Source: Candidatus Omnitrophota bacterium (GTDB taxonomy: Bacteria > Omnitrophota > Gorgyraeia > DTHP01). Taken from it: a stretch of 64,000 nt of DNA. The notes under the pieces are model-generated. The model searched no databases. It was not told the origin of the DNA and worked only from the letters and a program-made list of their open reading frames with translations. Below are positions 5,451-55,672 of this stretch, in pieces (within the stretch, counting starts at the first letter, position 1; the number at the start of each line of letters is the position of its first letter). Location of the stretch: the NCBI GenBank assembly GCA_023819145.1, contig JAMWCW010000006.1:16973-80972 (forward strand). The letters are read 5' to 3'. The position numbers and the translations under genes are program-made.

Positions 5451-5529
5451 CTCATTCCTCCTTTTTTATTTTTATGGGCTAAATTTTAAAAATTTAGTAT
5501 ATCACAAATCAATACCTTATGCAATTCTT

Positions 5530-7320: not shown

Positions 7321-7324
7321 TTTT

Positions 7325-14752: not shown

Positions 14753-14761
14753 CTCCGTTTA

Positions 14762-29406: not shown

Positions 29407-29431
29407 AAAATCACCCCCTTTTTAATGATAA

Positions 29432-30664: not shown

Positions 30665-30691
30665 ATTCTCCCTCCTATAAGAAATGAAAAA

Positions 30692-32410: not shown

Positions 32411-32412
32411 AT

Positions 32413-33828: not shown

Positions 33829-33841
33829 CTTCTCCTCCCTT

Positions 33842-34801: not shown

Positions 34802-34802
34802 A

Positions 34803-39770: not shown

Positions 39771-39800
39771 AATAAAAAACCCACCTTCTTCGGTGGGCCA
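39771..39800 (-). terminator. Rho-independent terminator forming the riboswitch expression platform
   Basis: On the minus strand: GGCCCACCGAAGAAGGTGGG followed by TTTTTTATTT. It lies about 50 nt upstream of the btuB ATG. Confidence 0.65.
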
Positions 39801-39955
39801 CAGATCGTAACCACTTCCCCTCCCGTGAAGGTACTTACCATCATGGGGATCGACCGGGCTCACCGCTAAAGCGAGAGTATTTTTGAGCTTTTACGGTATT
39901 ACCGTTGCAGGGCAGCCCCCTGACTTTCACAGGGAGTTCCTTCCCCAATCAGGAA
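39771..39955 (-). ncRNA. Cobalamin (B12) riboswitch
   Basis: The minus-strand sequence GGGGAAGGAACTCCCTGTGAAAGTCAGGGGGCTGCCCTGCAACGGTAA... matches the conserved cobalamin riboswitch core pattern (GGGAA..GGTG.AA.TCC...GC.G.CCCGC.AC.GTAA, B12-box-like). It ends in an intrinsic terminator just upstream of btuB. Confidence 0.6.
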
Positions 39956-40184
39956 AAATTAAGATTTCCCTACCTTATCTTTAACGTTTTTTTCACCGTT
40001 TCAATCTTTTCTAAATCAGTAATAATTTGTTTTTTCAAACGAGTAAAAAAATTTTTTTCAAAAAGTGTTTTTTGTTTTAAAAATATAGTAAAATAATATA
40101 AGTGTCAAGAAAAATCTTTAAAAGTGGTATTGATTTTTGAATCTAATTCTACGTTAAAGAAGTTTTATGCTCAAAAGAGAAATA

Positions 40185-40988
40185 TTAACGGAGTTTCTGA
40201 GGGATAGTAAAGATGTGAGGTCTTTTGGTTACGGGGTTATCTTTTACCACCACTACTGTATCGTACACCTCTTCAATAAGCTTATAATCTAATACCTCCT
40301 GAGGCGTTCCTAACCTTATCATCTCTCCCTCGCTAAGCAGCAGCAAACGGTTACAATATTGGCTTGCTAAATTAAGGTCATGTAGTACCGAAATGACCGT
40401 GATGTTTTTCTGGCGGTTCAATTTATCCAGAAGGTCAAATATTTTTATCTCATGCCCAATATCCAAATGTGCAGTTGGCTCATCCAATAAAATGAGAGTC
40501 GGCTCTTGAATAAGCGCACGGGTAATAAAAACCATTTGTTTCTCTCCCAAACTCAATTCATCAATACTTGCTGAAATAAAATTTTCTATCCCCGTGAGTC
40601 TTACCTTCGCCTCAATTACTTCCCAGTCTTTTTTTCTCTCTACTTTATACCGTTTCAAAAAAGGGTACCTTCCCATCTTGAGAATTTCCAAAACCGAGAA
40701 ACTAAACCAGACTTGAGTCTGTTGAGGAACATAAGCAATTTCCTGCGCAAGAATTCTTGGAGAGATACTACGTATGTCTTTATCCCGAAAAAGTATCTTT
40801 CCTTTTAAAGAAGGTAATATTCTTAAAATATTCCTTAAAAGAGTGGATTTTCCCGCTCCATTTGGACCAATGATTCCTAAAAACTCTCCTTCCTTAATTT
40901 GAAAGTTTATATTTTTCAAAACAGTCTTTCTTCCATAACCGGAAGAAAGATTTTCTACACTCAGTAAAATTTTCTTTTCGGTCATCAC
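40185..40988 (-). CDS. btuD: ABC transporter ATP-binding protein (BtuD/FepC family)
   Basis: 267 aa, Walker A GPNGAGKST, LSGGE+Q signature, Walker B ILLDEPT. Confidence 0.85.
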   Translation of the reverse strand: MMTEKKILLSVENLSSGYGRKTVLKNINFQIKEGEFLGIIGPNGAGKSTLLRNILRILPSLKGKILFRDKDIRSISPRILAQEIAYVPQQTQVWFSFSVLEILKMGRYPFLKRYKVERKKDWEVIEAKVRLTGIENFISASIDELSLGEKQMVFITRALIQEPTLILLDEPTAHLDIGHEIKIFDLLDKLNRQKNITVISVLHDLNLASQYCNRLLLLSEGEMIRLGTPQEVLDYKLIEEVYDTVVVVKDNPVTKRPHIFTIPQKLR

Positions 40989-41995
40989 TATTTAAAAACA
41001 ACTTTCTTCTTTTTTTGCAGTAGATAAATAAAAACCAACCCCCCAATAAAAGCAGTAATTACACCAATAGGAATCTCTATCGGACTAAAAACAGTACGTG
41101 CAAAGGTATCGGAGATGATAATAAAAATTGCTCCTCCTAAGAAAGAAGATGGTATTAACAAGCGATGTTCATTCCCTGAGAAAAAACGTATAATATGGGG
41201 TACAATTAAACCTACGAAACCAACGATTCCACATACTGCCACTGCAGTGGCAGTAATTAAGGAAGCAACGTAGATAAGCAGGCGTTTAATCTTTTCAACC
41301 TCAATCCCTAATGAAACCGCCTCTTCCTCACCTAAAGAGATTGCATTAAGTTCTCTGGCAAATAAAAAGGAAATTGTTACACCGAAAATTCCAATAATCG
41401 CCGTAGTCAATAAAAGAGAATTATCTACTACCTCTAAATTACCCAAAAGCCATCCCATAACTCCGCGCATCAGTTTATCTTCGAAAAGCCAGACTATAAA
41501 TATAAGAATATTAGTTAAAATTACCCCTACAACCACTCCCGAAAGAAGCAAATTTTGCGGAGGAAGTCTCCCTTCTACTTGGGCTAATCTTTTAACCATA
41601 AAGATACTCAGTAAACTACCCAAAAAACCACTCAACGGAAGATACAGTACTCCGCAACGAACCAAAGTCCCTCCCATAACCATCGCCACTACTACTCCTA
41701 ATCCTCCACCGCTGGACACTCCTAAAATATAAGGGTCTGCCAAGGGATTACGTAATACCGCCTGAAAAATCACTCCCGCAACCGAGAGCATTCCCCCAAT
41801 CATCGCACCTTGAATGATGCGTTTAAGACGAAGAACAAAGATAATTCTCTCTACCTCAGAAATGATAATTCCTTTAAAGGATAGAGAAACTGTCCCCAAG
41901 AAAGCAGAACATATGATTGAAAGCAATAGAAAGATTATGAGTATTGAGATTAACAAAATACCTTTTTTTCTATTCACCAGAAGTTTCTTTTCCAT
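40988..41995 (-). CDS. btuC: FecCD-family ABC permease (BtuC-like)
   Basis: 335 aa, about nine TM segments, typical FecCD conserved region. Confidence 0.85.
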   Translation of the reverse strand: MEKKLLVNRKKGILLISILIIFLLLSIICSAFLGTVSLSFKGIIISEVERIIFVLRLKRIIQGAMIGGMLSVAGVIFQAVLRNPLADPYILGVSSGGGLGVVVAMVMGGTLVRCGVLYLPLSGFLGSLLSIFMVKRLAQVEGRLPPQNLLLSGVVVGVILTNILIFIVWLFEDKLMRGVMGWLLGNLEVVDNSLLLTTAIIGIFGVTISFLFARELNAISLGEEEAVSLGIEVEKIKRLLIYVASLITATAVAVCGIVGFVGLIVPHIIRFFSGNEHRLLIPSSFLGGAIFIIISDTFARTVFSPIEIPIGVITAFIGGLVFIYLLQKKKKVVFK

Positions 41996-42863
41996 AAAAT
42001 CTCACAAAGAGTTGTTTTATCCCTTCGATTATGCGCGGGCCTGGCCGTAGAAGAATATCAGGGTCTATGTCTGCATAAATTCTATTATTCTTTACCGCTC
42101 TAATCACATTCCATCCATAACGATATGATAAATTATTCTCATTTTTTACTCCGTTATACATATAAGCTCTAATAATTACATCCGGAGAATTTTTAATCAC
42201 AAATTCCTCAGAGATGCGAGAAAATTTTCTCTTGATATTCCGGGCAATATTTATTCCTCCCGCCAGTGAAATCATTTCATCTAAATAGGAACTGTTTCCA
42301 CAGGTAATTAAAGGTGGATACCAAATTTCTAAAAAAACCTTTGGTCGCTTTGAAACATCTATCCTGTTAAGCTCGCTTTGAATCTCTAGCAATTCCTGCT
42401 CCAGGTGAAAAACAAGGTTCTTTGCTTCTTCTTCTCTAGTAGTAATTTTACCTATTTCCAGAACATTTTGAAAAAGCTCTTTAATATTCTCTGGATCGGC
42501 AATAAATACCTTCAGTCCTGCGCGTCTCAATTTTAAAATAATAGAGTTTTGCTCTAAACCGGTAGTAAAAATTATATCTGGCTTAAGAGAAATGATTTTT
42601 TCCAAACTAGGTTGGCTAAAAGTCCCTACCTTTTCGATGTTTTCTGCTGGAGAAGGATAATTGGAAAAACTGTCCACACCCACAATATTTCTCCCTAAAC
42701 CTAAAGCAAAGAGAATTTCCGTAGTGCTGGGAGCGAGCGAAACAATTCTTAAATCCTGAGCAAACACCCAAGATAGAGAAAAAACCAAACCTAAAATCAA
42801 AAATCCCAAAATTATCCCTTTAGGATTTAGGATTTTAAGTTTAGAATTTGGGTTTTTCTCCAT
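41970..42863 (-). CDS. btuF: Periplasmic substrate-binding protein (class III, BtuF-like)
   Basis: 297 aa, signal peptide, IVSLAPSTTEILFALGLG..IVGV pattern. Confidence 0.75.
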   Translation of the reverse strand: MEKNPNSKLKILNPKGIILGFLILGLVFSLSWVFAQDLRIVSLAPSTTEILFALGLGRNIVGVDSFSNYPSPAENIEKVGTFSQPSLEKIISLKPDIIFTTGLEQNSIILKLRRAGLKVFIADPENIKELFQNVLEIGKITTREEEAKNLVFHLEQELLEIQSELNRIDVSKRPKVFLEIWYPPLITCGNSSYLDEMISLAGGINIARNIKRKFSRISEEFVIKNSPDVIIRAYMYNGVKNENNLSYRYGWNVIRAVKNNRIYADIDPDILLRPGPRIIEGIKQLFVRFYGKETSGE

Positions 42864-42871
42864 TTAAATTC

Positions 42872-43405
42872 TTAATATTCGATTCCTTCTCTTGCCTTTA
42901 TCCCTTTTTGAAAAGGATGTTTAATTTCTTTTATTTCGCTGATATAATCCGCATATTCCCTCAATTTATTAACCAAAGGCCTGCCGGTAATAATTAATTC
43001 TGTGGATTTAGATTTATTCTTTATCAACTCAATTATATCCCCTTCTGAAATCAAATCACAATCAACTGCATTGAGAATTTCATCAAGAATAACCAGGTCG
43101 TAATTTCCGACTTTAAGACTATGCCTTATTTCTTTTAAAGCTTTGTTTAGAACATTCCTTGCCTTTTCTTTTTTTATTTTTTTACAAAAAATAGGATGTC
43201 TTTGCCCAAAACGCACAATCTTAATACCTTCTCCTAACTTTTCTATTGCTTTAACTTCTCCTGAGAGAAGATTTTTGGGTTTAAAGAACTGAAAGATTAT
43301 TATTTTTCTTCCCCAGCCCCATGCTCGCAAGGCAAGGCCTAAAGCAGAAGTAGTCTTTCCTTTACCGCGACCATAATATACTTGCACCAAACCAGTTTTT
43401 TTCAT
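42872..43405 (-). CDS. cobO: Cob(I)yrinic acid a,c-diamide/cob(I)alamin adenosyltransferase (CobA/CobO/BtuR type)
   Basis: 177 aa, VYYGRGKGKTTSALG P-loop and typical length. Confidence 0.8.
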   Translation of the reverse strand: MKKTGLVQVYYGRGKGKTTSALGLALRAWGWGRKIIIFQFFKPKNLLSGEVKAIEKLGEGIKIVRFGQRHPIFCKKIKKEKARNVLNKALKEIRHSLKVGNYDLVILDEILNAVDCDLISEGDIIELIKNKSKSTELIITGRPLVNKLREYADYISEIKEIKHPFQKGIKAREGIEY

Positions 43406-43408: not shown

Positions 43409-44404
43409 CTATTTTGCCAATCTTTCCAGTGGAAAGTCCGCCAAAGCAATCAGACTTTCTTTAAATTTGCTTTGAGGGAGGCAATTTATATCCTTTTTTG
43501 CCTTATCGGAAAAAAGCTTTGCTTTTTTTAAAGCTAACTCTACTGCCCGGTAAACCAAAGCAAGAATTCTTGCCCGGGGCATAGTCGCTCTATTCCTCAG
43601 AAAATTAAAAATCTCTCTTTTCTCTTCTCGGGAAAGAAAAGAAAATGGATAGATACAAGAAAAATTAATCTTTTTATTCTCTAATTCCTGAATGAAAGAT
43701 TCTTCTTCAGAGATGATGTTGAGACAATCATCTACAATCTGGAGCGTTAAACCAAAATTTAAACCAAAATTCTCCACTGCCTTTATGAACAAACCTTCCC
43801 CTCCCACAATAGACGCTCCTGCCCAACAAGCAGTAGACATAAGAGAGGCAGTCTTATTTTTTATTCTCTCAATATATTCACTTTCCTCAAAATTATTTAT
43901 AGGATTTTTTTCTTTTATCTTTACCTCAATCATCGCATCCAAAATGTTCATAAATCTTTTAATGATTTCTTGCTGACCCACATCTATCAGAAGACCAAAA
44001 GTACGAGAGAAAAGGTATTCAGAAAATAAAAGAGTATAACTTCTTTGCCCCCTTTTAGAATTTAAATTTTCTCCTTGCTCCTCATCTATGTTTTGCATCA
44101 CACTGTTTTGAAGCAATATTGCAGTATTAAATACTTCTATAGAAACAGCAAATTTATCTAAGCTGGAAAGATTCAAAGTATCGAGACTATTTCTACACAC
44201 AGATTTCGCGGAAAGAAAAACCAGCCCCGGCCTTATCTCTCTCTGAGGAAGGGAAAGGAGGTATTCACAGAGGGGAAAGAATTCCTTCTCTTTTCTTGTA
44301 AGAATATCTTTGTAAGAATTCCCCCATAAAGATAACTCTTTTTTAACTGGAGAAAAAATATCGCAAAGGAAATCTTTTGCTTTAACCTCTCGATTATGAG
44401 ACAT
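43409..44404 (-). CDS. Polyprenyl synthetase-family protein with a degenerate first Asp-rich motif
   Basis: 331 aa. The second motif is intact (FGLTLQIVDDCLNI). Where the first DDxxD motif is expected, the sequence reads LLQNSVMQNIDEE. Confidence 0.5.
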   Translation of the reverse strand: MSHNREVKAKDFLCDIFSPVKKELSLWGNSYKDILTRKEKEFFPLCEYLLSLPQREIRPGLVFLSAKSVCRNSLDTLNLSSLDKFAVSIEVFNTAILLQNSVMQNIDEEQGENLNSKRGQRSYTLLFSEYLFSRTFGLLIDVGQQEIIKRFMNILDAMIEVKIKEKNPINNFEESEYIERIKNKTASLMSTACWAGASIVGGEGLFIKAVENFGLNFGLTLQIVDDCLNIISEEESFIQELENKKINFSCIYPFSFLSREEKREIFNFLRNRATMPRARILALVYRAVELALKKAKLFSDKAKKDINCLPQSKFKESLIALADFPLERLAK

Positions 44405-44427
44405 TAATGAAATCCTCTGTCAAGAAA

Positions 44428-44664
44428 CTACTCTACCACATCTCCTACCACCGACTCTACCTTTATGCCTAATTTCTCCAGATAGACCCTTGCTTTCTCC
44501 AGATTTTCTTTTGTCCCACTAAGTTCCAAAGTCACCTCACCCACTGTATCCGTAACCCTTGCTCTCCGGATATTAGGAATGATATTAAATTTCTTTGCCA
44601 TATTATAAATAACTGGTTTTTTAACTAAATTCTGAGGAAATACTAAATGTACCATTTTTTTCAT
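44428..44664 (-). CDS. Stand-alone NIL-domain (MetN C-terminal-like) protein
   Basis: I place the start at the internal ATG at 44664, which has a GGAGGTGGA ribosome-binding site. The longer ORF-track model overlaps the thiF-like gene. The fold pattern L.F.G..V..P....++F.I..NI..A.V....G...LEL.G...+.A..YL...GIKVE matches NIL domains. Confidence 0.5.
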   Translation of the reverse strand: MKKMVHLVFPQNLVKKPVIYNMAKKFNIIPNIRRARVTDTVGEVTLELSGTKENLEKARVYLEKLGIKVESVVGDVVE

Positions 44665-44731
44665 ATCCACCTCCTTTTCATCGTTTATGACTCTAAAGAA
44701 AGAATTAAGGTAAATTCCGCCTATTAGCCCT

Positions 44732-45487
44732 CTACTCACGTAGAGGTCCACAAACAGGGCAGTTCTTATTGGGCTTAAGGGCGATTTTCTTAAAATCCAT
44801 GTTATTGCCTTCCCAAATAAGCAGTCTATTCCTAAGATTCTCTCCAACACCTGTTAAATATTTGAGCACCTCTAACGCTTCTAAACAGCCAATTACCCCT
44901 GGGGTAGCACCAACAACCGGAAATCTTTCCTTTGGAGGGGCCTCAGGAAAGATGCAAAAAAGGCAGGGAGTCTGAGGAACCTGAATAAAGCTCAAATATC
45001 CGCTCATACCCCAAACACTGGCATAAACAAACGGAATTTTCTTACGAATCGCACACTGGTTCAGAACTAAACGCGTCTCAAAGTTATCCATGCAATCTAC
45101 AACTATTTGACTTGTTCCTACAAAGCTATCTACATTCTCCTCCGTTATCTTCTCAGGTATATCCTTGACCTCTATGACAGGATTAAGCACTTTGAGTGTT
45201 TCCTTAGCCGATAGGGCTTTATTTATGCCAAGGCGTTTATCATGATGCAGTATTTGACGATTAAGATTGGAGAGTTCAGAAATATCAAAATCACAAATAT
45301 TAATCTTCCCAACCCCTGCTACTGCAAGATATATTGCTACAGGTGACCCTAACCCCCCAGCTCCGGCAATAAAGACTTCGGCATTTTTTATCTTCTTTTG
45401 CCCCTCCTCACCCCAGCCTTCAATGATTAGTTGTCTTGAATATCGCTCTAAATCATAAGAAGTAAGTTCTTTGATTTTCTCCATCAT
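44732..45487 (-). CDS. ThiF/MoeB/HesA-family E1-like sulfur-carrier-protein adenylyltransferase
   Basis: 251 aa, GAGGLGSP nucleotide loop, CxxC...CxxC zinc site (CLFC...CPVC). Confidence 0.85.
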   Translation of the reverse strand: MMEKIKELTSYDLERYSRQLIIEGWGEEGQKKIKNAEVFIAGAGGLGSPVAIYLAVAGVGKINICDFDISELSNLNRQILHHDKRLGINKALSAKETLKVLNPVIEVKDIPEKITEENVDSFVGTSQIVVDCMDNFETRLVLNQCAIRKKIPFVYASVWGMSGYLSFIQVPQTPCLFCIFPEAPPKERFPVVGATPGVIGCLEALEVLKYLTGVGENLRNRLLIWEGNNMDFKKIALKPNKNCPVCGPLRE

Positions 45488-45490
45488 TAT

Positions 45491-45766
45491 CTATCCTCCG
45501 GCAATAGCAGGAATTATAGAAATCTCATCCCCTTCTTTTAAAGGAGTCTTTTCCATTTGTAAAAAACGGATATCCTCGTCATTAACATATAGGTTAACAA
45601 ACCTGCGAATTTTCCCTTTTTCATCAACAATCCTTTCTTTTATACCCGGAAACTTTTTTTCTAAACTTTCTACCAACTCCTCAATGTTTTTCCCCTCTGC
45701 TTCGACCTCCGCGAGATTATTTGTTATTTTCTGCAAAGGGGTAGGAATACGCACCTTTACTGCCAT
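45491..45766 (-). CDS. MoaD/ThiS-family sulfur carrier protein (C-terminal Gly-Gly)
   Basis: 91 aa, ends ...ISIIPAIAGG. Confidence 0.8.
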   Translation of the reverse strand: MAVKVRIPTPLQKITNNLAEVEAEGKNIEELVESLEKKFPGIKERIVDEKGKIRRFVNLYVNDEDIRFLQMEKTPLKEGDEISIIPAIAGG

Positions 45767-45781
45767 ATAATACCTCCTACT

Positions 45782-47017
45782 TTATTCTTCGTGTATTTTA
45801 AGATTCTCTATAAAAGATTCTAAACTCGGCTTAATTCTCCATGGTTTTTTTAGCTTAGGAATAACTGCATCTTGTGTCTTTAATCCATTACCCGTAATAG
45901 AAACAACAATCGACTCATCCTTAGGAATTATCTTATTCTCAATCAGCTTTTTAGTCGCGGCTAAGGTGACACCACCAGCAGTTTCTGTGAAAATACCTTC
46001 AGTTTTTGCTAAAATTTGGATTGCTTCAACAATCTCCTCGTCAGAAACATTCTCTCCCGACCCTCGAGATTCTTTTACCGTCGATACTGCATAATAACCA
46101 TCCGCAGGATTCCCGATGGCTAAAGATTTAGCAATGGTCTTGGGTTTTACAGGTTTGATTATCTCTGAATTCTCTTTAATTGCAGTTACTACCGGAGAAC
46201 AACCCTCTGCCTGCGCAGCATAGACTTTTGTCCTTGGCTTATCCACAAACCCTAGTTTATATAACTCTTGAAATGCCTTCCAGATTTTTGAAATTAAAGA
46301 CCCTCCCGCAACGGGAACAACGATATTCTGTGGAAGCCTCCATCCTAATTGTTCGGCAATTTCAAAACCAAAAGTCTTAGAACCTTCTGCATAATAAGGA
46401 CGAATATTAATATTTACAAATGCCCATCGATATCGGGAAGCAATCTCTGTGCAAAGACGATTTACTTCATCATAATTGCCCTCTACGGCTACAACCGAAG
46501 CACCATAAACAAGTGTGGAAACAATTTTTGCCATTTCCAAGTCTGCAGGAATAAAGATAAAACTACGTAAGCCACAAAGAGCTGACTGCGCCGAAACAGA
46601 GTTTGCTAAATTTCCTGTTGAAGCACAGGCTACGGTATTAAAACCAAACTCCTTTGCCTTAGACAACGCCACCGCTACCACTCTATCTTTAAAAGAAAGT
46701 GTAGGATGACTCACAGAATCATCTTTAATATAAATCTCTTTCACTCCCAAATAATCTGCAAGATTATGTGCTCGGACTAAAGGAGTAAATCCTGAATGCA
46801 AACCACTTGTTGGCTCTTTATCTAAAGGCAACAATTCCCGATATCGCCAAAGATTATATGGACGTTTAGAAATTTCTTTTTTGGTCATAATTTTTTTTAT
46901 TTTTGCATAATCATAAACAACCTCTAAAGAACCGAAACAGTATTCACAAACAAAAAGCACATCTTTAGGATACTCTCTTCCACATTCCCGACAACGCAAT
47001 CCTAATACATAAGACAT
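45782..47017 (-). CDS. Threonine-synthase-family PLP enzyme with an N-terminal zinc ribbon (candidate thiocarboxylate-dependent homocysteine synthase)
   Basis: 411 aa, CRECG...CEYC ribbon, PLP lysine motif HPTLSFKDR, fold II PLP glycine loop GNGL/GGS. Confidence 0.7.
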   Translation of the reverse strand: MSYVLGLRCRECGREYPKDVLFVCEYCFGSLEVVYDYAKIKKIMTKKEISKRPYNLWRYRELLPLDKEPTSGLHSGFTPLVRAHNLADYLGVKEIYIKDDSVSHPTLSFKDRVVAVALSKAKEFGFNTVACASTGNLANSVSAQSALCGLRSFIFIPADLEMAKIVSTLVYGASVVAVEGNYDEVNRLCTEIASRYRWAFVNINIRPYYAEGSKTFGFEIAEQLGWRLPQNIVVPVAGGSLISKIWKAFQELYKLGFVDKPRTKVYAAQAEGCSPVVTAIKENSEIIKPVKPKTIAKSLAIGNPADGYYAVSTVKESRGSGENVSDEEIVEAIQILAKTEGIFTETAGGVTLAATKKLIENKIIPKDESIVVSITGNGLKTQDAVIPKLKKPWRIKPSLESFIENLKIHEE

Positions 47018-47043
47018 AGTTTGCTTACCTCCTTTATTCTCTT

Positions 47044-47577
47044 TTAAAGAAGTTCTTCTATGATTTCTTCCAGATTATTTGGCCAGAAAAAATTATAATA
47101 CTTTATATTACCCTCACGGTCAATAATAATATCCGTGGGGACCCCAATCACTTTATAAAGATGAGAAACCTCCATATATTCATCCAAAAGAATAAGATAA
47201 GGAATCTCTTCTTTTTTTTTAATTCTATTTACAATCTCCTTACCTTCGCCAATAATCACCGTTAGAACTTCCACATCTTTCCCACCATATTTAGCATGAA
47301 TTTTTTTAAGTATAGGAATCTCTCTTATACAATAAGGACAGCGGCTCGTCCAAAATGTCAAAAGCACAACTTTATCTCTAAAATCTTTTAAAGAAAATAC
47401 CTCTCCCGAAACATCTGGTAGACTAAATTCCCACGCTTTTAAAACTGAAGAAGAAGCTTCTGTCTTATTTGTTATTTCCTCATTTACTCTATCTGTGGCA
47501 TTATGGAACAATTTCCATCCCGATAATCCTAAGATTACCAAAAACAAAATTAAAATTATCCAACCTTTATTTTTCAT
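47044..47577 (-). CDS. TlpA/ResA-like membrane-anchored thiol:disulfide oxidoreductase
   Basis: 177 aa, N-terminal TM, thioredoxin fold with WTSRCPYC. Confidence 0.7.
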   Translation of the reverse strand: MKNKGWIILILFLVILGLSGWKLFHNATDRVNEEITNKTEASSSVLKAWEFSLPDVSGEVFSLKDFRDKVVLLTFWTSRCPYCIREIPILKKIHAKYGGKDVEVLTVIIGEGKEIVNRIKKKEEIPYLILLDEYMEVSHLYKVIGVPTDIIIDREGNIKYYNFFWPNNLEEIIEELL

Positions 47578-48278
47578 AGTATTCTCCCCGCCTTAAGAAA
47601 ATAATATTCACTTGCCAATAACAAAAGCCAAGCAAAAATTTTTCTTATCTTCATTAGCCATCTACCGGATTTAGGAAGGCTGGCCAATATTCCTGAAAAC
47701 GTTCCCACAATAATCATAATCAACCCCATGCCATATGCAAAAACAAAAAGGAGACTCATCCCCAAAAAAATATTTCTCTTAATTGCCACAGATAAAAGAA
47801 TTGCGCCCAACACTGGAGTAGTGCATGGACTGATAACTAACGCCGAAACCATGCCCACAAAAAGCGCACCTAAAAAACCTTTTTTCTCAACCTCCCATCT
47901 TTTTTCTTTTAGAAATCTTGGAATAGGAAGTTCAAATACTCCAAATAAAGAAAGACTAAAAAGTAAGCAAAAATTGCCCACGATAACGTAGCTTAAGGGG
48001 TGTTGAGTCAACTCTCCAAATACTTTTCCTGTAAGTACTGCTCCTATACCTAATAAAGAATAAACTACTGCAAAACCAAGGACATAAAAAATACTTAAAA
48101 AGAACCCTCTAAACTTTGAACCTATACTATGACTACCAATATAGCCTACAGTCACAGGAATTAAAGGATATACACAAGGAGTAAAACTCATCAAAACACC
48201 CCCTAAAAATGCTAAGATATAGGTAAGGAGTGATATATTTACAAGGTATCTTTCAAAATTATGGAGCATATCTAACAT
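47574..48278 (-). CDS. ccdA: Cytochrome c biogenesis/thiol-disulfide electron transporter CcdA (DsbD TM-domain family)
   Basis: 234 aa, six TM segments, conserved Cys in TM1 (FTPCVYPLIP) and TM4 (ISPCTTPVLG). Confidence 0.8.
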   Translation of the reverse strand: MLDMLHNFERYLVNISLLTYILAFLGGVLMSFTPCVYPLIPVTVGYIGSHSIGSKFRGFFLSIFYVLGFAVVYSLLGIGAVLTGKVFGELTQHPLSYVIVGNFCLLFSLSLFGVFELPIPRFLKEKRWEVEKKGFLGALFVGMVSALVISPCTTPVLGAILLSVAIKRNIFLGMSLLFVFAYGMGLIMIIVGTFSGILASLPKSGRWLMKIRKIFAWLLLLASEYYFLKAGRIL

Positions 48279-48345
48279 CTCTAAGAGAAACTTAATTATT
48301 ATAGGATTTCCATCCTATTTATAACTTTAAACTGTCAACTTATTC

Positions 48346-49323
48346 CTAAATTATTTCCTGACGCAATTTCTCAATCCCTACACGATTCAGAATATTTGCT
48401 AAACGCTCTCCTTTTTTTGCTTCTTTAACATAGAAATTAAGAGTCTTTTTTATCGCATTAAGCGCCTGTTTCTCATCTAAAAAATTGGCGATTTTTCTTC
48501 CTAACTGCGGAAACCTTCCCCATTTTCCTCCCACATACATTGCTAACCCAAAGAGTTTTATCTGCCAAGCACTTTGGGGACAATTGAGAATACAGAGACC
48601 ACAATACACACATTTTGACTCCTCTAATTCAATCTCTTTCTTACGCGGATGAATCTTGATTGCATCGGTAGGACAAATTCCTTCACAGGTTCTACAGAAA
48701 TTACATTTCTCTTTATGCCATTCAGGCATTACCTGCCCACAGAAACCAATCTCATTTTCTTGTGCTCTTGCACAGGAATTAGTACAACCAGAGATACTAA
48801 TACGAAATTTGTGGGGCAGACTAATTTTATTTTTTATACGGGTTTCCAAAACCTCGCGATTTATCTCTGGAATTGTTAACCCTTTCTCTGCCTCGGCATC
48901 CCAAGAAAAAATTTCTATCTCTTCCTTACCATAAAATTCCCGTTCAATCTGTTCTGCAAGATTAAGTGTGTCAACCCATGCCCAAGGACACCAACGATTT
49001 CCCGGACAGGAAACTACTGCCCTCACTCTTGAACCACTCACACTTATACTCAAGTTAACCTTCTCTAATTCTTCCTTAACCAAAAGAAGGTTATCCCGAT
49101 GGACATAAGGAATTTCTATGCCTTGGCGTGGAGTAAGATGCACAAACCCCTGGCCATAATTCTTAGCCAATTCCGAAAGCTTTGCGAGTTGTTCCGAACT
49201 TAACATACCTAAAGAATTCTTAATTCGCAAACAAAAAAAATCTTTCTGTCTCTGTCTTAAGTAAGCCCATTGCTTTAACTCCACAGGACTAATTCTAAAA
49301 CTCTCTAATTTTTCTCCCTCCAT
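48346..49323 (-). CDS. Small nitrite/sulfite-reductase-family protein with siroheme-[4Fe-4S] site and a 2x[4Fe-4S] ferredoxin insert
   Basis: 325 aa, CPGNRWC...SGCTNSCA (the C-x5-C ... C-x3-C SiR/NiR cluster motif) plus CNFCRTCEGICP and CVYCGLCILNCP. Confidence 0.65.
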   Translation of the reverse strand: MEGEKLESFRISPVELKQWAYLRQRQKDFFCLRIKNSLGMLSSEQLAKLSELAKNYGQGFVHLTPRQGIEIPYVHRDNLLLVKEELEKVNLSISVSGSRVRAVVSCPGNRWCPWAWVDTLNLAEQIEREFYGKEEIEIFSWDAEAEKGLTIPEINREVLETRIKNKISLPHKFRISISGCTNSCARAQENEIGFCGQVMPEWHKEKCNFCRTCEGICPTDAIKIHPRKKEIELEESKCVYCGLCILNCPQSAWQIKLFGLAMYVGGKWGRFPQLGRKIANFLDEKQALNAIKKTLNFYVKEAKKGERLANILNRVGIEKLRQEII

Positions 49324-49386
49324 ATTCTAAAATCTCCTTATTAATTTTTAAGTATTTTACCACAAAGAATGCAAATATCCTAAAGT

Positions 49387-50310
49387 TTATTGCATTATGG
49401 AGATGTATCTTTCTCCCCTGTCCGGGAAAATAACCACTACTTTCTTTGTCTTACTGAGGTTATTTGCTACCTTAAGTGCTGCCCAACAGGCTGCACCTGA
49501 AGAAACCCCTACGAAAATCCCTTCTTCCCAGGCTAATCTTTTAGCAATTTTAAAAGCATCCTCATCAGAAACTCGAACTATTTCATCAATAATCTCTCTG
49601 TTGAGAACGCGGGGTATAAACCCTGCTCCAATTCCTTGAATCTTATGCACACCACTATCCCTTCCCGATAAAACTGCACTTGTTTCCGGTTCGACTGCCA
49701 CAATTCTAATTTTGGGGTTTTTCTTTTTCAAAACTTCCCCTACGCCGGTAATTGTTCCTCCTGTGCCTACTCCTGCTACAAAAGCATCTATTTCTCCTTT
49801 GGTCTGATTCCAGATTTCTTGGGCAGTCATCCTCCGATGCGCCTCGGGGTTTGCTGAATTATTAAACTGCTGGGGCATAAAACTGTTGGGTATTTTTTTC
49901 AGAAGTTCCTCTGCTTTTCTTATTGCCCCCTGCATCCCCGCGTCTCCGGGAGTAAGTATTACCTCTGCTCCGTAGGATTCAAGAATACATCTTCTCTCTA
50001 AACTCATTGTTTCGGGCATCGTAAGAATGCATTTATACCCTTTTACTGCACAGACCATAGCCAAACCGATTCCTGTATTGCCGCTGGTGGGTTCAATCAC
50101 TGTCCCGCCAGGCTTAAGCATTCCCTCCTCCTCTGCCACCTCAATCATCATAAGACATATTCTATCTTTTATGCTTCCACCAGGATTAAAACTTTCTAAT
50201 TTTGCTAAAACCTGGGCATGTTCTAAATCAACAATTTTATTCAATCTTACCAGAGGAGTCTGGCCAATCAACTCCAGAACATTCTTAGCTATCTTATCTC
50301 CGAAAGGCAT
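49387..50310 (-). CDS. cysK: Cysteine synthase (O-acetyl/O-phosphoserine sulfhydrylase)
   Basis: 307 aa, PLP lysine motif NPGGSIKDR, GTGGT loop. Confidence 0.88.
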   Translation of the reverse strand: MPFGDKIAKNVLELIGQTPLVRLNKIVDLEHAQVLAKLESFNPGGSIKDRICLMMIEVAEEEGMLKPGGTVIEPTSGNTGIGLAMVCAVKGYKCILTMPETMSLERRCILESYGAEVILTPGDAGMQGAIRKAEELLKKIPNSFMPQQFNNSANPEAHRRMTAQEIWNQTKGEIDAFVAGVGTGGTITGVGEVLKKKNPKIRIVAVEPETSAVLSGRDSGVHKIQGIGAGFIPRVLNREIIDEIVRVSDEDAFKIAKRLAWEEGIFVGVSSGAACWAALKVANNLSKTKKVVVIFPDRGERYISIMQ

Positions 50311-50716
50311 TTTGACCTCCTTGTATCTTCATCTTTTCTTCTTCTATTTTATCTCCATTGATTCTGTAAACCCGAATTTCAGGATTATTAAAATTTTTTA
50401 GCGAAACAATAAGATAAAAAAAATCAGGATAAAATGCAAGTTCTCTGTCTCTGCTTGAGGGATAAGCTGAACCGTCGGGGTGAGAATGATATATCCCTAA
50501 TATTTTCATTTTTAACTTTTCTGTTTCTTTGAATGCTTTTAATTGCTCTTTCGCATCAGCAAGGAATCTAGTAGAGTCTTTTTCGATATTGGGAAGGGCA
50601 AAAATTTTTTCTGCCTTGTCATTCCTACCTACAAATATCCCGCATGCTTCTAAAGGGAATTCTTTCTTACAGTGTTTAATTATCTTTTCCAAAACTTTTC
50701 TTTCTAAAACCAACAT
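50294..50716 (-). CDS. JAMM/MPN+ metalloprotease (Mec+/CysO-hydrolase-like)
   Basis: 140 aa, E...HSHPDGSAYPSSRD JAMM motif. Confidence 0.8.
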   Translation of the reverse strand: MLVLERKVLEKIIKHCKKEFPLEACGIFVGRNDKAEKIFALPNIEKDSTRFLADAKEQLKAFKETEKLKMKILGIYHSHPDGSAYPSSRDRELAFYPDFFYLIVSLKNFNNPEIRVYRINGDKIEEEKMKIQGGQNAFRR

Positions 50717-50717
50717 T

Positions 50718-51158
50718 TTAAATAGTGTAGATTAAAAGTTTCTTTTTTGATCTAATTTCATTGACCAAATCCTCAAAACTTACACTGTCAATAACCTCTT
50801 CAGTCTTTTTAGTAACATCTTTCCATATTCTGCGAAAAACACAACTGTTTATTTCCTGGCATCCTTTATATCCTTCATCTACACAGGCAATTGGTTCGAT
50901 GGCTCCTTCCATAAAACGTACCACCTCACCCAGTTTTATCTGCGAAGGATGTCGCGCCAAAAAGTAACCTCCCACACTCCCTCTTTTACTTTCTACAAAT
51001 CCTCCTCTTTTTAACTCCCTTAATATCTGCTCTAAAAACTTTTCCGGTATATCCAAACGGCTACTTAATTTAGAAATGGTCTCTACTCTGTCGCCATAGT
51101 GTAGCGCCAATTCCAAAACTGTCTTCAGTGCATAATCTCCTTTATAGGTTATTTTCAT
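50718..51158 (-). CDS. Rrf2-family transcriptional regulator (IscR/CymR-like)
   Basis: 146 aa, N-terminal winged HTH typical of Rrf2, three Cys (C92, C101, C106) in cluster-ligand positions. Confidence 0.8.
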   Translation of the reverse strand: MKITYKGDYALKTVLELALHYGDRVETISKLSSRLDIPEKFLEQILRELKRGGFVESKRGSVGGYFLARHPSQIKLGEVVRFMEGAIEPIACVDEGYKGCQEINSCVFRRIWKDVTKKTEEVIDSVSFEDLVNEIRSKKKLLIYTI

Positions 51159-51365
51159 AATTTATATAATCTCTATTGACTTAGTAGAGTATAGATAAAA
51201 AAAGTAAAACTGTCAAGGATAAATTAAATACTACTCCTTTTTTGTAGTCAAAAATAAACAGGAGACTTTCTAAACACCTCTTATTAGAAATTTGTCCCTT
51301 CCTTTAATTACAGATTCTCATAGAAAACCCCTTTATTATTGAGGCATCTGAGATTGTAAATTCCA

Positions 51366-51440: not shown

Positions 51441-52745
51441 ATGTTTTTTAAAAAAACATTCCCAGGGGGAATACATCCCCCTACCTATAAGAACCTAACC
51501 CAAAATTATCCCCTTGAGGAAATACCCTCTCCCCAGAAAGTGGTCTTACCTCTCATCCAGCATAGCGGTAGCCCCGCTGAACCTTTAGTTAAACCCGAAG
51601 AAGTGGTAAGCATGGGACAGAAAATTGCTTCCTCGGATAAATATATCTCCGCACCCATTCATGCCTCTATCTCTGGAAAAGTTTCCAAAATAGATTATTT
51701 CAACCACCCTATCCTGGGTAAGTCTTTAGCGATTTTTATTGAAGATACAGGAGTTCACCCAGATTTTATACCATTTACCAAAGAAAATCCCGAGAATTTA
51801 TCTCCCCCAGAGTTAAAAAAAATAATTCAGGAAGCCGGTATTGTGGGTTTAGGAGGAGCGGGGTTTCCTACGCACGTTAAACTCTCATCTCCCAAGCCCA
51901 TCGACACATTAATCCTCAATGCCGCAGAATGCGAGCCATATCTTACTTGCGATGAGCGACTTTTGCAAGAAAAACCAATCGAAGTCTTTAAAGGTTTAGA
52001 AATTATTATAAAAATAATCTCTCCAAAGAGTGTTTTCATAGGAATTGAAGATAATAAGAAAGAGTTAATAAAAACCATAGAGGAAAATCTCCATAAACTT
52101 GGATTAAATAAAATAAAAACCTTCATTTTAAAAACTAAATATCCTCAGGGAGGAGAAAAACAACTCATTAAAGCAATAACTGGACGTATCGTCCCTTCGG
52201 GAGGACTCCCTTTTGATGTCGGAACATTAGTCCACAATGTGGGAACTGTCTTTGCTGTATACGAAGCAGTTTATTTAGGAAAGCCCCTCTATGAAAGAAT
52301 AATCACTATATCGGGAAAGGCAATTAAGAAACGAGGAAACTTCAAAGTAAAAATGGGTACTTTACTTTCTGACATCGTCGAATATTGTGGAGGATTTATT
52401 AAAGAACCTAAAAAAATAATCTTCGGAGGCCCAATGATGGGAATTGCTCAATGGAGTTTAGATACCCCCATAATAAAAGGAACCTCCGGTGTTTTATTTC
52501 TTACTGATGAAGAACTAAACTTAGAAAATTCAACCGCCTGTATCCGTTGTGGAAAATGTATTGAAGTATGCCCGATGCAGATTATGCCTGCTTCTATTGG
52601 TTTAGCCGGAGAATATAATAAATGGAATATTGCAAAAGAATATTCACCGTTAGATTGTATTGAATGTGGCGCTTGTAGCTACATTTGTCCCACAAGAAGA
52701 GATTTAGTGCAATTTATAAAATTAGCAAAACAATTTACTCGTTAA
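51441..52745 (+). CDS. rnfC: Rnf electron transport complex subunit C
   Basis: 434 aa, NADH-binding GGAGFP, two 4Fe-4S motifs CIRCGKCIEVCP and CIECGACSYICP. Confidence 0.9.
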   Translation: MFFKKTFPGGIHPPTYKNLTQNYPLEEIPSPQKVVLPLIQHSGSPAEPLVKPEEVVSMGQKIASSDKYISAPIHASISGKVSKIDYFNHPILGKSLAIFIEDTGVHPDFIPFTKENPENLSPPELKKIIQEAGIVGLGGAGFPTHVKLSSPKPIDTLILNAAECEPYLTCDERLLQEKPIEVFKGLEIIIKIISPKSVFIGIEDNKKELIKTIEENLHKLGLNKIKTFILKTKYPQGGEKQLIKAITGRIVPSGGLPFDVGTLVHNVGTVFAVYEAVYLGKPLYERIITISGKAIKKRGNFKVKMGTLLSDIVEYCGGFIKEPKKIIFGGPMMGIAQWSLDTPIIKGTSGVLFLTDEELNLENSTACIRCGKCIEVCPMQIMPASIGLAGEYNKWNIAKEYSPLDCIECGACSYICPTRRDLVQFIKLAKQFTR

Positions 52746-52807
52746 TTTCGTTAAACTCGTTCACCAAGCTTAACGAGCGAACCTAGTTTTAATGACCTAA
52801 ACTAAAA

Positions 52808-53767
52808 ATGAATAGTCTTATAGTTTCTGTATCTCCACACATAAAGACTAAGGACTCCTGCAAAAGGATTATGTGGTCGGTAGTTTTAGCACTTATTCCC
52901 ACAGGATGTGCGGGGGTCTTTATTTTTGGCTTATCTGCTTTGAAAGTAATTATTGTTTCTTTAATCACTGCTCTTTTAACGGAAGCGATTATTCAGAAAT
53001 TAAGACATAAAAAAACAACCATTTCTGATGGTTCTTGTTTTATTACGGGACTCCTTCTTGCCTACAACCTTCCTCCATCGGTCCCCTGGTGGATCCCTGC
53101 GCTTGGAAGTTTCTTTGCAATCGCCATCGTCAAACATTCATTTGGAGGGTTAGGACACAATATCTTTAATCCCGCTTTAGCCGGAAGAGCTTTTCTCGTC
53201 GCTTCCTCACCGCGTTTCATGACTAACTGGACTCCACCACGTTGGCAAATAGACACTTTAACCACCGCCACACCACTAGGAATTATAAAAGAAAAAATTT
53301 CTCACCCCCTTCCTTCTTATCTACAGCTTTTCCTTGGAGACCGTGGGGGATGCATTGGCGAGGTGTGTATCTTGGCAATTATTTGCGGAGCTCTCTTTCT
53401 TCTTTGTAAAGGTTATATCCACTGGTATACTCCTTTCACTTTTATCTTTACTTTAGGAATTCTCAGTTGGATGTTTATGGGGAACACACTATTTAAAGGC
53501 AACTGGTTATTTCATCTTCTAAGCGGTGGGTTATTCTTGGGAGCATTCTTTATGGCGACTGACTATGTAACTACTCCTTTAACCCGAAGGGGACAGATTA
53601 TTTTTGGCTTTGGTTGTGGTATCTTAACCTTTTTAATCCGTAAATTTGGAGGGTATCCGGAAGGAGTATCTTATTCTATCCTTATCATGAATGCTTTTAC
53701 TCCTCTAATTGACAGATACACAAAAACTAAAAAATTTGGATATACAAAAACTCCAAACCCTAAATAA
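52808..53767 (+). CDS. rnfD: Rnf complex subunit D
   Basis: 319 aa, polytopic NqrB/RnfD family. Confidence 0.88.
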   Translation: MNSLIVSVSPHIKTKDSCKRIMWSVVLALIPTGCAGVFIFGLSALKVIIVSLITALLTEAIIQKLRHKKTTISDGSCFITGLLLAYNLPPSVPWWIPALGSFFAIAIVKHSFGGLGHNIFNPALAGRAFLVASSPRFMTNWTPPRWQIDTLTTATPLGIIKEKISHPLPSYLQLFLGDRGGCIGEVCILAIICGALFLLCKGYIHWYTPFTFIFTLGILSWMFMGNTLFKGNWLFHLLSGGLFLGAFFMATDYVTTPLTRRGQIIFGFGCGILTFLIRKFGGYPEGVSYSILIMNAFTPLIDRYTKTKKFGYTKTPNPK

Positions 53768-53782
53768 TGGATTTGGGAAATT

Positions 53783-54352
53783 TTGAATTGTTTAGAGTTT
53801 AGAACTTCGTGTTTAACTGAAATGGTTAGGTTTGGTATAATTTTAATGTTGGTGTGTCTAACTGCGTCTCTTATTCTCTCTTTCACTTATAAAAAAACTA
53901 ATCCTTTAATTATTATACAGAAAGAAAAGGAAGAGAAGGAAGCATTAAGCACTGTCTATCCCGAAGGTGAAAATTTTAAAAAATTGGATAACCACTATTT
54001 AGTATATAAAGATGAGAAACCCATCGGGTTTGTTATAAGGGTTTCTGCAAAAGGATATGCAGGACCAATTGAAATGCTTGTCGGGTTTAATCAGGAAGGC
54101 ACGATTCAAGGAGTTAATGTCCTGGAACAGAAAGAAACTCCTGGTTTGGGAGCTAGAATCTCTGAGGTAAAATATGGGGAAAAAGAACCATGGTTTTTAT
54201 CCCAGTTTAAGCATAAAAACATAAAAGAATTAAACTTGTCCAAAATAAATGCTATTTCTGGAGCCACAATTTCTAGTCGAGCGATAATAGAAGGAGTAAG
54301 AAAAAATATCGAAGAATTTTTAAAAGGACAAACTCTAAACCTCAAACAATAA
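53783..54352 (+). CDS. rnfG: Rnf complex subunit G (FMN-binding)
   Basis: 189 aa, N-terminal TM, FMN-bind domain with SGAT(I)SS flavinylation motif. Confidence 0.85.
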   Translation: MNCLEFRTSCLTEMVRFGIILMLVCLTASLILSFTYKKTNPLIIIQKEKEEKEALSTVYPEGENFKKLDNHYLVYKDEKPIGFVIRVSAKGYAGPIEMLVGFNQEGTIQGVNVLEQKETPGLGARISEVKYGEKEPWFLSQFKHKNIKELNLSKINAISGATISSRAIIEGVRKNIEEFLKGQTLNLKQ

Positions 54353-54362
54353 ACTCTAAATT

Positions 54363-55010
54363 ATGATGAACTTATGGCAAGAATTTAAAAAAGGAATAAC
54401 CATTCAAAATCCTACCTTTGGCTTAATCCTAGGGTTATGTCCTACTTTAGCAGTTTCTACTAATGTAATCAATGCCGTAGGTATGGGAATAGCAGCGTCT
54501 TTTGTGCTCTTAGGCTCAAATGTAATTATTTCTTCTGTACGCCGTATTATTCCCCAAGAGATAAGAATACCCTGTTACATCGTGATTATTGCTACCTTTG
54601 TTACTATTACCGAGTTGGTAATGAAAGCTTTCGTGCCTGCCCTAAGCAAATCCTTAGGAATCTTTATCCCCCTCATTGTAGTAAATTGTATTGTTATGGC
54701 AAGAGCAGAAGCATTTGCCTCTAAAAATTCTATCATCCTCTCTATCTTTGATGCTCTTGGGATGGGATTAGGTTTTACTCTGGCCCTTACTCTCATCGCC
54801 AGCATCAGAGAAATATTGGGTAATGGAACTTTTTTAGGCATACCCCTTATAAATAATTTTTCCCCTTTAATTATTATGATACTTGCTCCCGGCGCACTTT
54901 TAACTATTGGACTTTTAATCGGTTTAACTAATTGGATAAAGTTAAAAAATCAGAAAACCGAATATCAAAAACCGAAAAGATTTAAATGTGCCTCTTGTTT
55001 TAAAATTTAA
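54363..55010 (+). CDS. rnfE: Rnf complex subunit E
   Basis: 215 aa, NqrD/RnfE family membrane protein. Confidence 0.88.
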   Translation: MMNLWQEFKKGITIQNPTFGLILGLCPTLAVSTNVINAVGMGIAASFVLLGSNVIISSVRRIIPQEIRIPCYIVIIATFVTITELVMKAFVPALSKSLGIFIPLIVVNCIVMARAEAFASKNSIILSIFDALGMGLGFTLALTLIASIREILGNGTFLGIPLINNFSPLIIMILAPGALLTIGLLIGLTNWIKLKNQKTEYQKPKRFKCASCFKI

Positions 55011-55050
55011 ATATTTAGATTTTTTGCGACATTTCGGATTTTAACAGAAT

Positions 55051-55653: not shown

Positions 55654-55672
55654 AAATTATAAAGACGCGAAA

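Follow-up and report, generated by a model that had tools for sequence, protein, structure and literature searches.

A probable protein-thiocarboxylate homocysteine synthesis cluster with a NIL-domain partner in an Omnitrophota genome

In Streptomyces albulus, homocysteine is made from O-phosphohomoserine by the enzyme MetM in concert with the carrier protein MetO, the JAMM protease Mec, and the E1 enzyme MoeZ, as the work of Hasebe et al. 2024 is summarised in the GapMind 2026 preprint (10.1101/2024.10.14.618325). The same summary describes MetM as “often misannotated” as threonine synthase (ThrC), and the S. albulus metM gene is stated in PMC12172450 to be preceded by an S-adenosylmethionine (SAM) riboswitch. 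A gene cluster that resembles this system lies on a 64-kb stretch of DNA from an Omnitrophota metagenome-assembled genome (MAG), here called the window, and all window-level statements cover these 64 kb. The cluster most likely encodes a MetM/MetO-type homocysteine synthase and, along with it, an E1, a JAMM protease, a sulfite reductase, a cysteine synthase, and a NIL-domain protein of its own. A MetM/MetO-type core is already known; what is new here is that a NIL protein accompanies the MetM/MetO-type route in many bacterial phyla.

A second system of this kind, which Krishnamoorthy and Begley reportedly described in 2011, is said to comprise HcyS, HcyF, HcyD, Sir, and MetY; the sulfide from its sulfite reductase is thought to load the adenylated carrier, and MetY is said to use O-acetylhomoserine. 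An HcyS-type protein-thiocarboxylate methionine pathway exists in Wolinella succinogenes, according to PMC6225789 and PMC8191291, which cite it. Gene neighborhoods in which a carrier, an E1 without a rhodanese domain, a JAB protease, and a sulfite reductase occur together, usually with TusA/SirA and 3′-phosphoadenosine 5′-phosphosulfate (PAPS) reductase, form class 4e of Iyer et al. 2006 (PMC1779556). Homocysteine is also formed in methanogens and Desulfovibrio by an L-aspartate-semialdehyde sulfurtransferase that consists of a DUF39 (COG1900) protein and a NIL-ferredoxin and thus contains a NIL domain (PMC5764234, PMC12068725).

The cluster in the window consists of 15 genes that run from 51158 to 40185, all on the minus strand, with gaps of at most 67 nucleotides (nt) and several overlaps, as delineated by open reading frames (ORFs), Pfam, and NCBIfam. 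The order of transcription is Rrf2 regulator, JAMM protease, CysK, sulfite reductase, CcdA, TlpA-like thioredoxin, ThrC-like enzyme, ThiS-type carrier, ThiF-type E1, NIL protein, polyprenyl-synthetase-like protein, and CobO-BtuF-BtuC-BtuD. The co-directional eleven-gene array that a sequence-only reading had described is thereby recovered, with every listed gene in place. The whole gene arrangement is repeated in L007, a relative whose ThrC-like protein is 89% identical, and the arrangement in the window is therefore not an assembly accident.

The locus shares with the MetM/MetO system a ThrC-homologous pyridoxal phosphate (PLP) enzyme beside a small carrier that ends in Gly-Gly, together with the JAMM protease and the E1 that are required there. 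It differs in that the rhodanese domain of MoeZ is missing from its E1, in that the E1, JAMM, and sulfite reductase genes belong to the operon itself instead of being recruited from other loci, and in that it has an Rrf2 regulator in place of the SAM riboswitch plus a NIL protein that the actinomycete loci examined do not have. With Wolinella it has in common an operon for carrier, rhodanese-less E1, JAMM protease, and sulfite reductase. The PLP enzyme in the window, however, is of the ThrC-fold MetM type, so that O-phosphohomoserine is expected as its substrate, whereas MetY of Wolinella has the fold of the Cys/Met-metabolism enzymes. Moreover, the carrier in the window already ends in Gly-Gly and, unlike that of Wolinella, would need no C-terminal trimming, and there is no TusA/SirA in the window. 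Like the CysO/CysM/Mec+ genes of Mycobacterium tuberculosis, the locus has its JAMM gene directly beside (here overlapping) a cysteine synthase gene, and its carrier is near CysO; the cysteine synthase, however, is of the O-acetylserine/sulfide (CysK) type, and the only carrier gene sits by the ThrC-like gene. By analogy, the cluster is a hybrid of Wolinella-type sulfur loading and a Streptomyces-type PLP enzyme, which would make the two published systems the ends of one modular family.

The central component is the ThrC-like PLP enzyme with an N-terminal zinc ribbon (45782–47017; PF00291, 240 bits). It scores above the cutoffs of two NCBIfam threonine synthase models (PRK08197, 316.9 bits versus 303; TIGR00260, 299.5 bits versus 167), and the database names of its homologs are all “threonine synthase,” including that of a 100% identical protein from a Candidatus Omnitrophica bacterium MAG. 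Evidently, PRK08197 and TIGR00260 also cover the MetM-like clade. Against the solved ThrC structures in the PDB the protein scores 205–214 bits, and the second thrC copy in L014 reaches 502 bits. A neighbor-joining tree of 185 sequences, composed of 50%-identity representatives, 80 GTDB loci, PDB ThrCs, and second-copy ThrCs, places the canonical ThrCs in a clade of their own and the window protein in a crown clade with the motif S[FY]KDRV. In a neighbor-joining tree of 63 sequences, the clade formed by the window protein with those of Nonomuraea and Micromonosporaceae shuts out the canonical ThrCs as well as zinc-ribbon “SFKDRG” proteins in 200 of 200 bootstraps. The four cysteines of the zinc ribbon (CxxC...CxxC; C9, C12, C24, and C27) are invariant in the alignment. 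Residues that are invariant in canonical ThrC are replaced: T88L, S155N, and R160Y (Thermus thermophilus numbering) are each fixed in at least 90% of 90 clade members, and G64V likewise replaces an invariant residue across the clade. We take T88, S155, and R160 to be the residues that hold the phosphate for product-assisted catalysis in T. thermophilus ThrC. K61, S84, T85, N87, and N154 are kept, leaving the PLP lysine and the carboxylate-binding S-T-G-N loop intact. Judged by its sequence, the enzyme does not belong to the canonical threonine synthases; with its carrier it probably constitutes a MetM/MetO-type pair.

Homologs of the ThrC-like enzyme (54–69% identity) were compared in 80 GTDB genomes from many phyla, which include Planctomycetota, Nitrospirota, Nitrospinota, Verrucomicrobiota, Acidobacteriota, Aquificaceae, Zetaproteobacteria, and Poribacteria; 72 of the loci have enough flanking sequence for the ThiS and riboswitch counts, 62 have at least 3 kb downstream for the NIL count, and 89 loci in total were mapped for module content. 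A ThiS gene comes next after the ThrC-like gene in 64 of the 72 loci, across many phyla, and a SAM-I riboswitch stands directly upstream of the ThrC-like gene in half of them (36/72); Rfam confirmed the riboswitch at the gathering score in all 15 loci that were submitted, and also in Micromonosporaceae and Nonomuraea. In Thermodesulfovibrionia (L012, L019, L021, and also L016), operons carry, in this order, genes for the MetM-like enzyme, ThiS, NIL, a canonical ThrC, and HomK (about 150–4700 in L012), and this HomK scores 559.6 bits against the “proposed homoserine kinase” model TIGR02535 (cutoff 446). Both paralogs are thus kept beside the producer of their shared substrate O-phosphohomoserine. 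All-against-all clustering of the flanking ORFs yielded mostly antisense shadow ORFs and, as the sole added neighbor, HomK in Thermodesulfovibrionia. A “PhosphMutase” gene in L007 was rejected as HomK (275 bits against TIGR02535, cutoff 446).

The layout of the S. albulus genes has a counterpart in other actinomycetes. In the cultured Nonomuraea gerenzanensis (PLSDB record), a SAM riboswitch, a ThrC-like gene, and a gene for a 91-residue ThiS ending in Gly-Gly follow each other in this order; the ThrC-like protein is 51% identical to that of the window and the carrier 54% over all 91 residues. A SAM riboswitch (80.7 bits) also precedes the ThrC-like homolog in Micromonosporaceae, and the actinomycete matches of a third homolog search belong to Streptosporangiales only. 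Thiocarboxylate-type homocysteine synthesis, which the sequence-only reading had proposed, thus gains support from the separate clade, the ThiS and riboswitch counts, the operons with thrC and HomK, and the actinomycete locus. The grouping with genuine threonine synthases that was to refute this reading does not appear in the trees.

The CysO/MetO-type carrier (ThiS/MoaD fold, 45491–45766; PF02597, 68 bits) starts 15 nt after the ThrC-like gene and ends in AIAGG followed by the stop codon. Its nearest PDB entries are CysO proteins (4n6e_B and 3dwg_C), and it scores 53.7 bits against the SAMP1 model (cutoff 60). The ThiF/MoeB-type E1 adenylyltransferase (44732–45487; 251 residues; PF00899, 244 bits) displays a GxGxxG motif and two CxxC pairs and has no rhodanese domain. 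It reaches 194 bits against the MoeZ model (cutoff 647), 225.6 bits against the SAMP-activating E1 UbaA (cutoff 450), and good scores below the cutoffs against the NCBIfam MoeB models. Carrier and E1 are fused as ThiS-ThiF in L017, and a fusion of ThiF with the ThrC-like enzyme exists as well (P0312). Longer ThrC-like fusions with LeuA_dimer or PadR domains are distant paralogs and were set aside as uninformative. The JAMM/Prok-JAB metalloprotease (50294–50716; PF14464, 87.3 bits) is Mec+/HcyD-like and retains the zinc motif E...HxHx7SxxD as EACG...HSHPDGSAYPSSRD. Its nearest solved structure is 2kks, the desampylase model gives 84.4 bits (cutoff 130), and its gene overlaps cysK by 17 nt. ORF and Pfam inspection of the window cluster detected no moaE, thiG, or other partner of molybdenum cofactor or thiamin synthesis.

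The sulfite reductase (48346–49323; NIR_SIR_ferr, NIR_SIR, Fer4) is a small siroheme enzyme into which a 2x[4Fe-4S] ferredoxin with two CxxCxxCxxxCP motifs is inserted. The cysteines for the siroheme and [4Fe-4S] cluster are present as CX5C (CPGNRWC) and CX3C (CTNSC). Its best PDB match is the C-terminal half of the F420-dependent sulfite reductase (7np8, Fsr-C/Dsr-like), and all NCBIfam equivalog models remain below cutoff. A sulfite reductase of the same type is encoded upstream of the ThrC-like gene in each of the five relative contexts looked up (among them L001, L004, L007, and L008). The adjoining cysteine synthase (49387–50310) is of the CysK type, with 461 bits against TIGR01139 (cutoff 351) and 324.8 bits against the CysM model TIGR01138, under its cutoff of 394. 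Its nearest PDB entry is M. tuberculosis CysK1 (2q3b), and M. tuberculosis CysM is absent among the 60 PDB matches listed. The carrier-dependent cysteine arm that had been suggested for the locus is plausible at most: the enzyme scores as CysK, not CysM, but relatives encode homologs that are fused to ThiS and lie beside JAMM. In L001 the homolog is a ThiS-CysK fusion with a GGG junction, and its PLP part shares 64% identity with the window CysK; L004 has a fusion of the same type, and both fusions adjoin a JAMM gene. That both PLP enzymes draw on a single carrier is plausible, with about an even chance.

Other genes for sulfur and electron traffic occur around these loci. In L008, a relative with 83% identity, the stretch 3790–10016 upstream of the ThrC-like gene encodes two small sulfite reductases, two TusA proteins, CcdA/TlpA, a NifS-type cysteine desulfurase (TIGR03402, 535.6 bits), and a MinD/ParA-like ATPase, and the sulfur-trafficking genes of the window are less dense than those of this island. 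On the plus strand of the window, at 51441–56479, an operon for RnfC, D, G, E, A, and B is transcribed divergently from the sulfur cluster, and Rnf genes directly follow NIL in L008; Rnf could supply the sulfite reductase with reduced ferredoxin, or the proximity could be mere local synteny. A gene for a PHO4/PiT-family permease is found at 14075–15736 (minus strand) of the window, beside a gene that is PhoU-like by eye only, and L001 has a PHO4-family gene within the sulfur cluster, between PAPS reductase and JAB. Import of sulfate or sulfite by this family is a possibility here.

The stand-alone NIL protein (44428–44664; 78 residues; PF09383, 62.6 bits) is a conserved partner of the module around the ThrC-like enzyme and ThiS, and an addition to the published pathways. 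It is encoded in 55 of the 89 mapped loci, in 38 of the 62 GTDB loci with sufficient downstream sequence, and after the ThrC-like/ThiS(/ThiF) genes in L001, L004, L007, and L008, the four contexts that reach far enough downstream. Nine loci (L010, L011, L015, L020, L022, L023, L028, L055, and L067) encode ThiS-NIL fusions in which AIAGG is retained between the two domains. A JAB gene is present in eight of these nine loci versus 9 of 59 with unfused ThiS, a co-occurrence that fits cleavage of a precursor by the JAMM protease. A link of NIL to ThiS or MetM was not described in the searchable literature, a search that did not take in Hasebe et al. 2024.

In its modeled structure, the NIL protein resembles the C2 domain of the methionine transporter subunit MetN. 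It aligns end to end with the C2 domain of Escherichia coli MetN, and its AlphaFold (AF2) model (mean confidence, pLDDT, 87.6) takes on a β-α-β-β-α-β fold whose best PDB match is the selenomethionine-bound 3tuz_H (TM score 0.84, root-mean-square deviation 1.0 Å); MetN C2/NIL domains account for all of the 11 best PDB matches. N31 aligns with MetN N295 and A35 with A299, and the two residues are conserved in 80% and 98% of 55 NIL proteins, respectively. In MetN, N295 hydrogen-bonds methionine and the N295A substitution abolishes binding (PMC6233128). Arg33, by comparison, is conserved in 98% and particular to the NIL family of the module, with Ile in MetN. Thus, Pfam family, fold, and the N295/A299 equivalents are shared with MetN C2, whereas the NIL of the module is free-standing or placed behind ThiS; it belongs to a biosynthetic operon, while that of MetN terminates an ATP-binding cassette (ABC) ATPase. 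The DUF39 system differs further: its catalytic protein is unrelated, it uses aspartate semialdehyde instead of a homoserine ester, its NIL domain is fused to ferredoxin, and it has no ubiquitin-like carrier.

Taken together, the sulfite reductase, ThrC-like enzyme, ThiS, ThiF, NIL, and JAMM protease form a core that is likely to act as a protein-thiocarboxylate homocysteine pathway. The reaction sequence would start with the reduction of sulfite, the presumed sulfur source, to sulfide by the Fsr-C-like siroheme enzyme. The rhodanese-less ThiF would adenylate the carrier at its C-terminal Gly-Gly; the presumed sulfur donor, sulfide or a persulfide, would convert the adenylate to the carrier thiocarboxylate (carrier-COSH). 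The MetM-type enzyme could then catalyze a γ-replacement on O-phosphohomoserine with carrier-COSH as the nucleophile, after which the JAMM protease would hydrolyze the carrier-homocysteine adduct to homocysteine and free carrier. CysK may make cysteine from free sulfide or from the same carrier. The NIL protein would most likely serve as a methionine-binding regulatory subunit of the module, and Rrf2 would probably control transcription in place of the riboswitch found in about half of the other lineages.

The Rrf2-family regulator (50718–51158; PF02082, 126.5 bits) carries a C-x7-C-x5-C motif of probable Fe-S ligands, and its best equivalog-type models are IscR and CymR, both below cutoff. 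A promoter-like site (TTGACA-17-TATACT) that agrees with the consensus at 11 of 12 positions precedes it at 51188–51216 on the minus strand. The segment from the −35 element to the ATG (window 51159–51216, minus strand; L007 5960–6012) is conserved in L007, whereas the sequence further upstream is not. Within it, past the −10 element and ahead of the Rrf2 start codon, lies a conserved imperfect palindrome, CTCTACTAAGTCAATAGAG, which is a candidate Rrf2 operator. An Rrf2 gene adjoins the module in L001, L007, L020, L022, and L028 as well, none of which has a SAM riboswitch; the numbers are small but hint at alternative modes of control, and Rrf2 probably regulates transcription of the window cluster in place of the riboswitch. 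No Rfam family reaches the gathering score within the cluster.

The remaining genes of the array are probably neighbors, not components. The CcdA/DsbD-type transmembrane thiol-disulfide electron transporter (47574–48278; Pfam DsbD_TM) and the TlpA/ResA-like thioredoxin with CPYC motif and N-terminal membrane anchor (47044–47577; Pfam, NCBIfam) are confined, as members of the cluster, to the window and two close relatives, L007 and L008, whose ThrC-like proteins are 83–89% identical, and are found in none of 40 GTDB loci. A metagenome scan returned three CcdA/TlpA loci, none of them sulfur-linked, with homologs at 49–51% identity among unrelated genes. Given this distribution among close relatives only, the pair is treated as a probable passenger. 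The suggestion that NIL and CcdA/TlpA both stand outside the described pathways has to be divided accordingly, with NIL as a conserved partner of the module and CcdA/TlpA as lineage-specific neighbors.

The polyprenyl-synthetase-like protein (43409–44404; 75 bits) has degenerate Asp-rich motifs. The loss of its first DDxxD motif, noted before, is confirmed as LLQNSVMQNIDEE, and the second motif is degenerate too (DDCLN); the L007 protein is likewise degenerate, and homologs in L008, L001, and L011 have DDxxD intact. Every NCBIfam model remains far under its cutoff, and the protein is probably a catalytically dead paralog. The gene was rejected as part of the module, since it adjoins only in the window and L007 and homologs elsewhere keep the motifs.

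The genes for the corrinoid adenosyltransferase CobO and the ABC uptake proteins BtuF, BtuC, and BtuD (40185–43405; domain search) similarly adjoin the module only in the window and L007. The earlier argument that they point to a B12-dependent methionine synthase (MetH) is not contradicted but finds no comparative support, and the B12 genes were set aside as a sign of MetH coupling: no metH was seen among the ORFs of at least 120–180 residues inspected outside the cluster in the window. A full-length adenosylcobalamin (AdoCbl) riboswitch match (RF01482) is located downstream at 39778–39967 (minus strand) with 30.9 bits, below the gathering score of 50 (E = 0.02), and a terminator-like hairpin follows it (39799–39778). 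The match lies just upstream of genes for a TonB-dependent receptor (37699–39720) and a TonB-like protein (37043–37660); CobO-BtuFCD, which are situated upstream of the match, have no riboswitch of their own. Elsewhere in the window, two tandem pseudopilin-like gene sets (22460–27408, minus strand) adjoin type IV pilus/type II secretion system genes (27489–36350). One ORF in these sets (23575–24999) has GGGGRD-type repeats, and another (26323–27408) combines long low-complexity tracts of SPS/TPS with a tail rich in Cys.

Several points weigh against the homocysteine pathway and the place of NIL in it. Functional assignments are based throughout on homology and gene context, and membership in the MetM group is judged by proxy, with actinomycete loci in metM-metO layout standing in for S. 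albulus MetM. A SAM riboswitch is detected in the window neither at the gathering score of Rfam nor at E ≤ 1, and the 64 kb contain no TusA, rhodanese domain, or PAPS reductase. NIL genes were not found near the actinomycete ThrC-like loci, and across the loci the presence of NIL is independent of the presence of the riboswitch. A 77%-identical NIL in L095 (3738–5240) lies beside Thi4 and a ThiI-like fragment, with no ThrC-like gene within 5 kb. Finally, a Microcystis (cyanobacterial) homolog with 51.6% identity to MetM has threonine synthase and deaminase activities in vitro and is not clearly a MetM in vivo (PMC12172450). The Microcystis enzyme favors a bifunctional protein that would be both the sole threonine synthase and a homocysteine synthase, with O-phosphohomoserine split according to the supply of carrier-COSH and biased by NIL and methionine. 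The retained PLP lysine and S-T-G-N loop would suit such an enzyme, as would the finding that no canonical thrC occurs among the ORFs inspected in the window. It is nevertheless improbable, as Thermodesulfovibrionia keep a separate canonical thrC beside the ThrC-like gene, and T88, S155, and R160, the presumed phosphate ligands, are replaced. A more conventional reading, in which an ordinary threonine synthase is clustered by coincidence with a ThiS/ThiF pair for molybdopterin, thiamin, or tRNA thiolation, could draw on the threonine synthase models and names and on the good MoeB scores of ThiF. It is very unlikely in view of the fully supported separate clade, the remodeled ThrC residues, the ThiS and riboswitch counts, and the canonical thrC in the same Thermodesulfovibrionia operon; furthermore, the cluster holds no molybdenum cofactor or thiamin partner, and the carrier is nearest to CysO. 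A ubiquitin-like conjugation (SAMPylation-type) function of ThiS, ThiF, and JAB, instead of or besides a sulfur relay, is scarcely to be expected either: the matches to SAMP1, UbaA, and desampylase that suggest it are weak and all below cutoff, the neighbors in the operon, PLP enzymes and a sulfite reductase, are metabolic, CysO is the closest solved relative of the carrier, and control of homologous loci by SAM riboswitches points to biosynthesis.

Within the homocysteine pathway, the function of NIL can be read in more than one way. As a free-standing version of the MetN transinhibition domain, it is a candidate methionine-binding regulatory subunit, a role that is held to be possible with slightly less than even confidence. 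In a more elaborate proposal, which is put forward tentatively, NIL would be an integral third subunit of a widespread non-actinomycete MetM/MetO synthase and a methionine-sensing gate on the transfer from the carrier to the PLP enzyme or E1, often made as a ThiS-GG-NIL precursor that needs a cut by JAMM. NIL may instead be an adaptor or chaperone in sulfur transfer that docks, for example, carrier-COSH or E1 onto PLP or other sulfur-using enzymes. The ThiS-NIL fusions, which imply 1:1 synthesis with the carrier, speak for this role, as do the family-specific Arg33 and the independence from the riboswitch. So does the L095 context, and in L096 (5001–6050) a NIL gene is also located next to a Thi4-type thiazole synthase gene. 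The NILs of L095 and L096 are 75–77% identical to that of the window and may indicate partners beyond the homocysteine module, although two of the three loci that were reached starting from NIL belong to the module and only the third, L095, lies beside Thi4/ThiI. Genetics shows that the DUF39 homocysteine pathway needs NIL-ferredoxin for more than regulation (PMC5764234), which keeps the adaptor a live rival. On the other side, NIL contains no cysteine that could hold a persulfide, both the Asn for methionine contact and the interface Ala of MetN C2 are preserved in it, and MetM/MetO-type loci of actinomycetes function with no NIL gene next to them, so that an adaptor is rather unlikely. The CcdA/TlpA pair, lastly, could be a working membrane thiol relay that replaces TusA for the sulfur species of the sulfite reductase. 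SoxV/SoxW is a model for such a relay. The pair follows the sulfite reductase directly, as TusA does in relatives; TusA is missing from the window, and in L008 the pair is still beside the sulfite reductase despite rearranged neighbors. The relay is unlikely, however, as the pair, whose link with the module is confined to the window and two close relatives, has homologs among unrelated genes and includes a membrane-anchored TlpA that presumably faces the periplasm, whereas the pathway is cytoplasmic.

For the MetM/MetO-type reading of the cluster, the consequences reach beyond this genome. The “threonine synthase” homologs in Omnitrophota, Margulisiibacteriota, Saganbacteria, and cultured actinomycetes would be better read as homocysteine synthases, and for many uncultured lineages such a relabeling would change whether they are predicted to be prototrophic for methionine and threonine. 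If NIL is a gating subunit, NIL domains would have a common role in at least two unrelated homocysteine systems, MetM/MetO and DUF39/NIL-ferredoxin, as well as in methionine import. Its presence across many phyla and its fusions to the carrier make the protein a small, tractable handle on the role of NIL domains in homocysteine synthesis.

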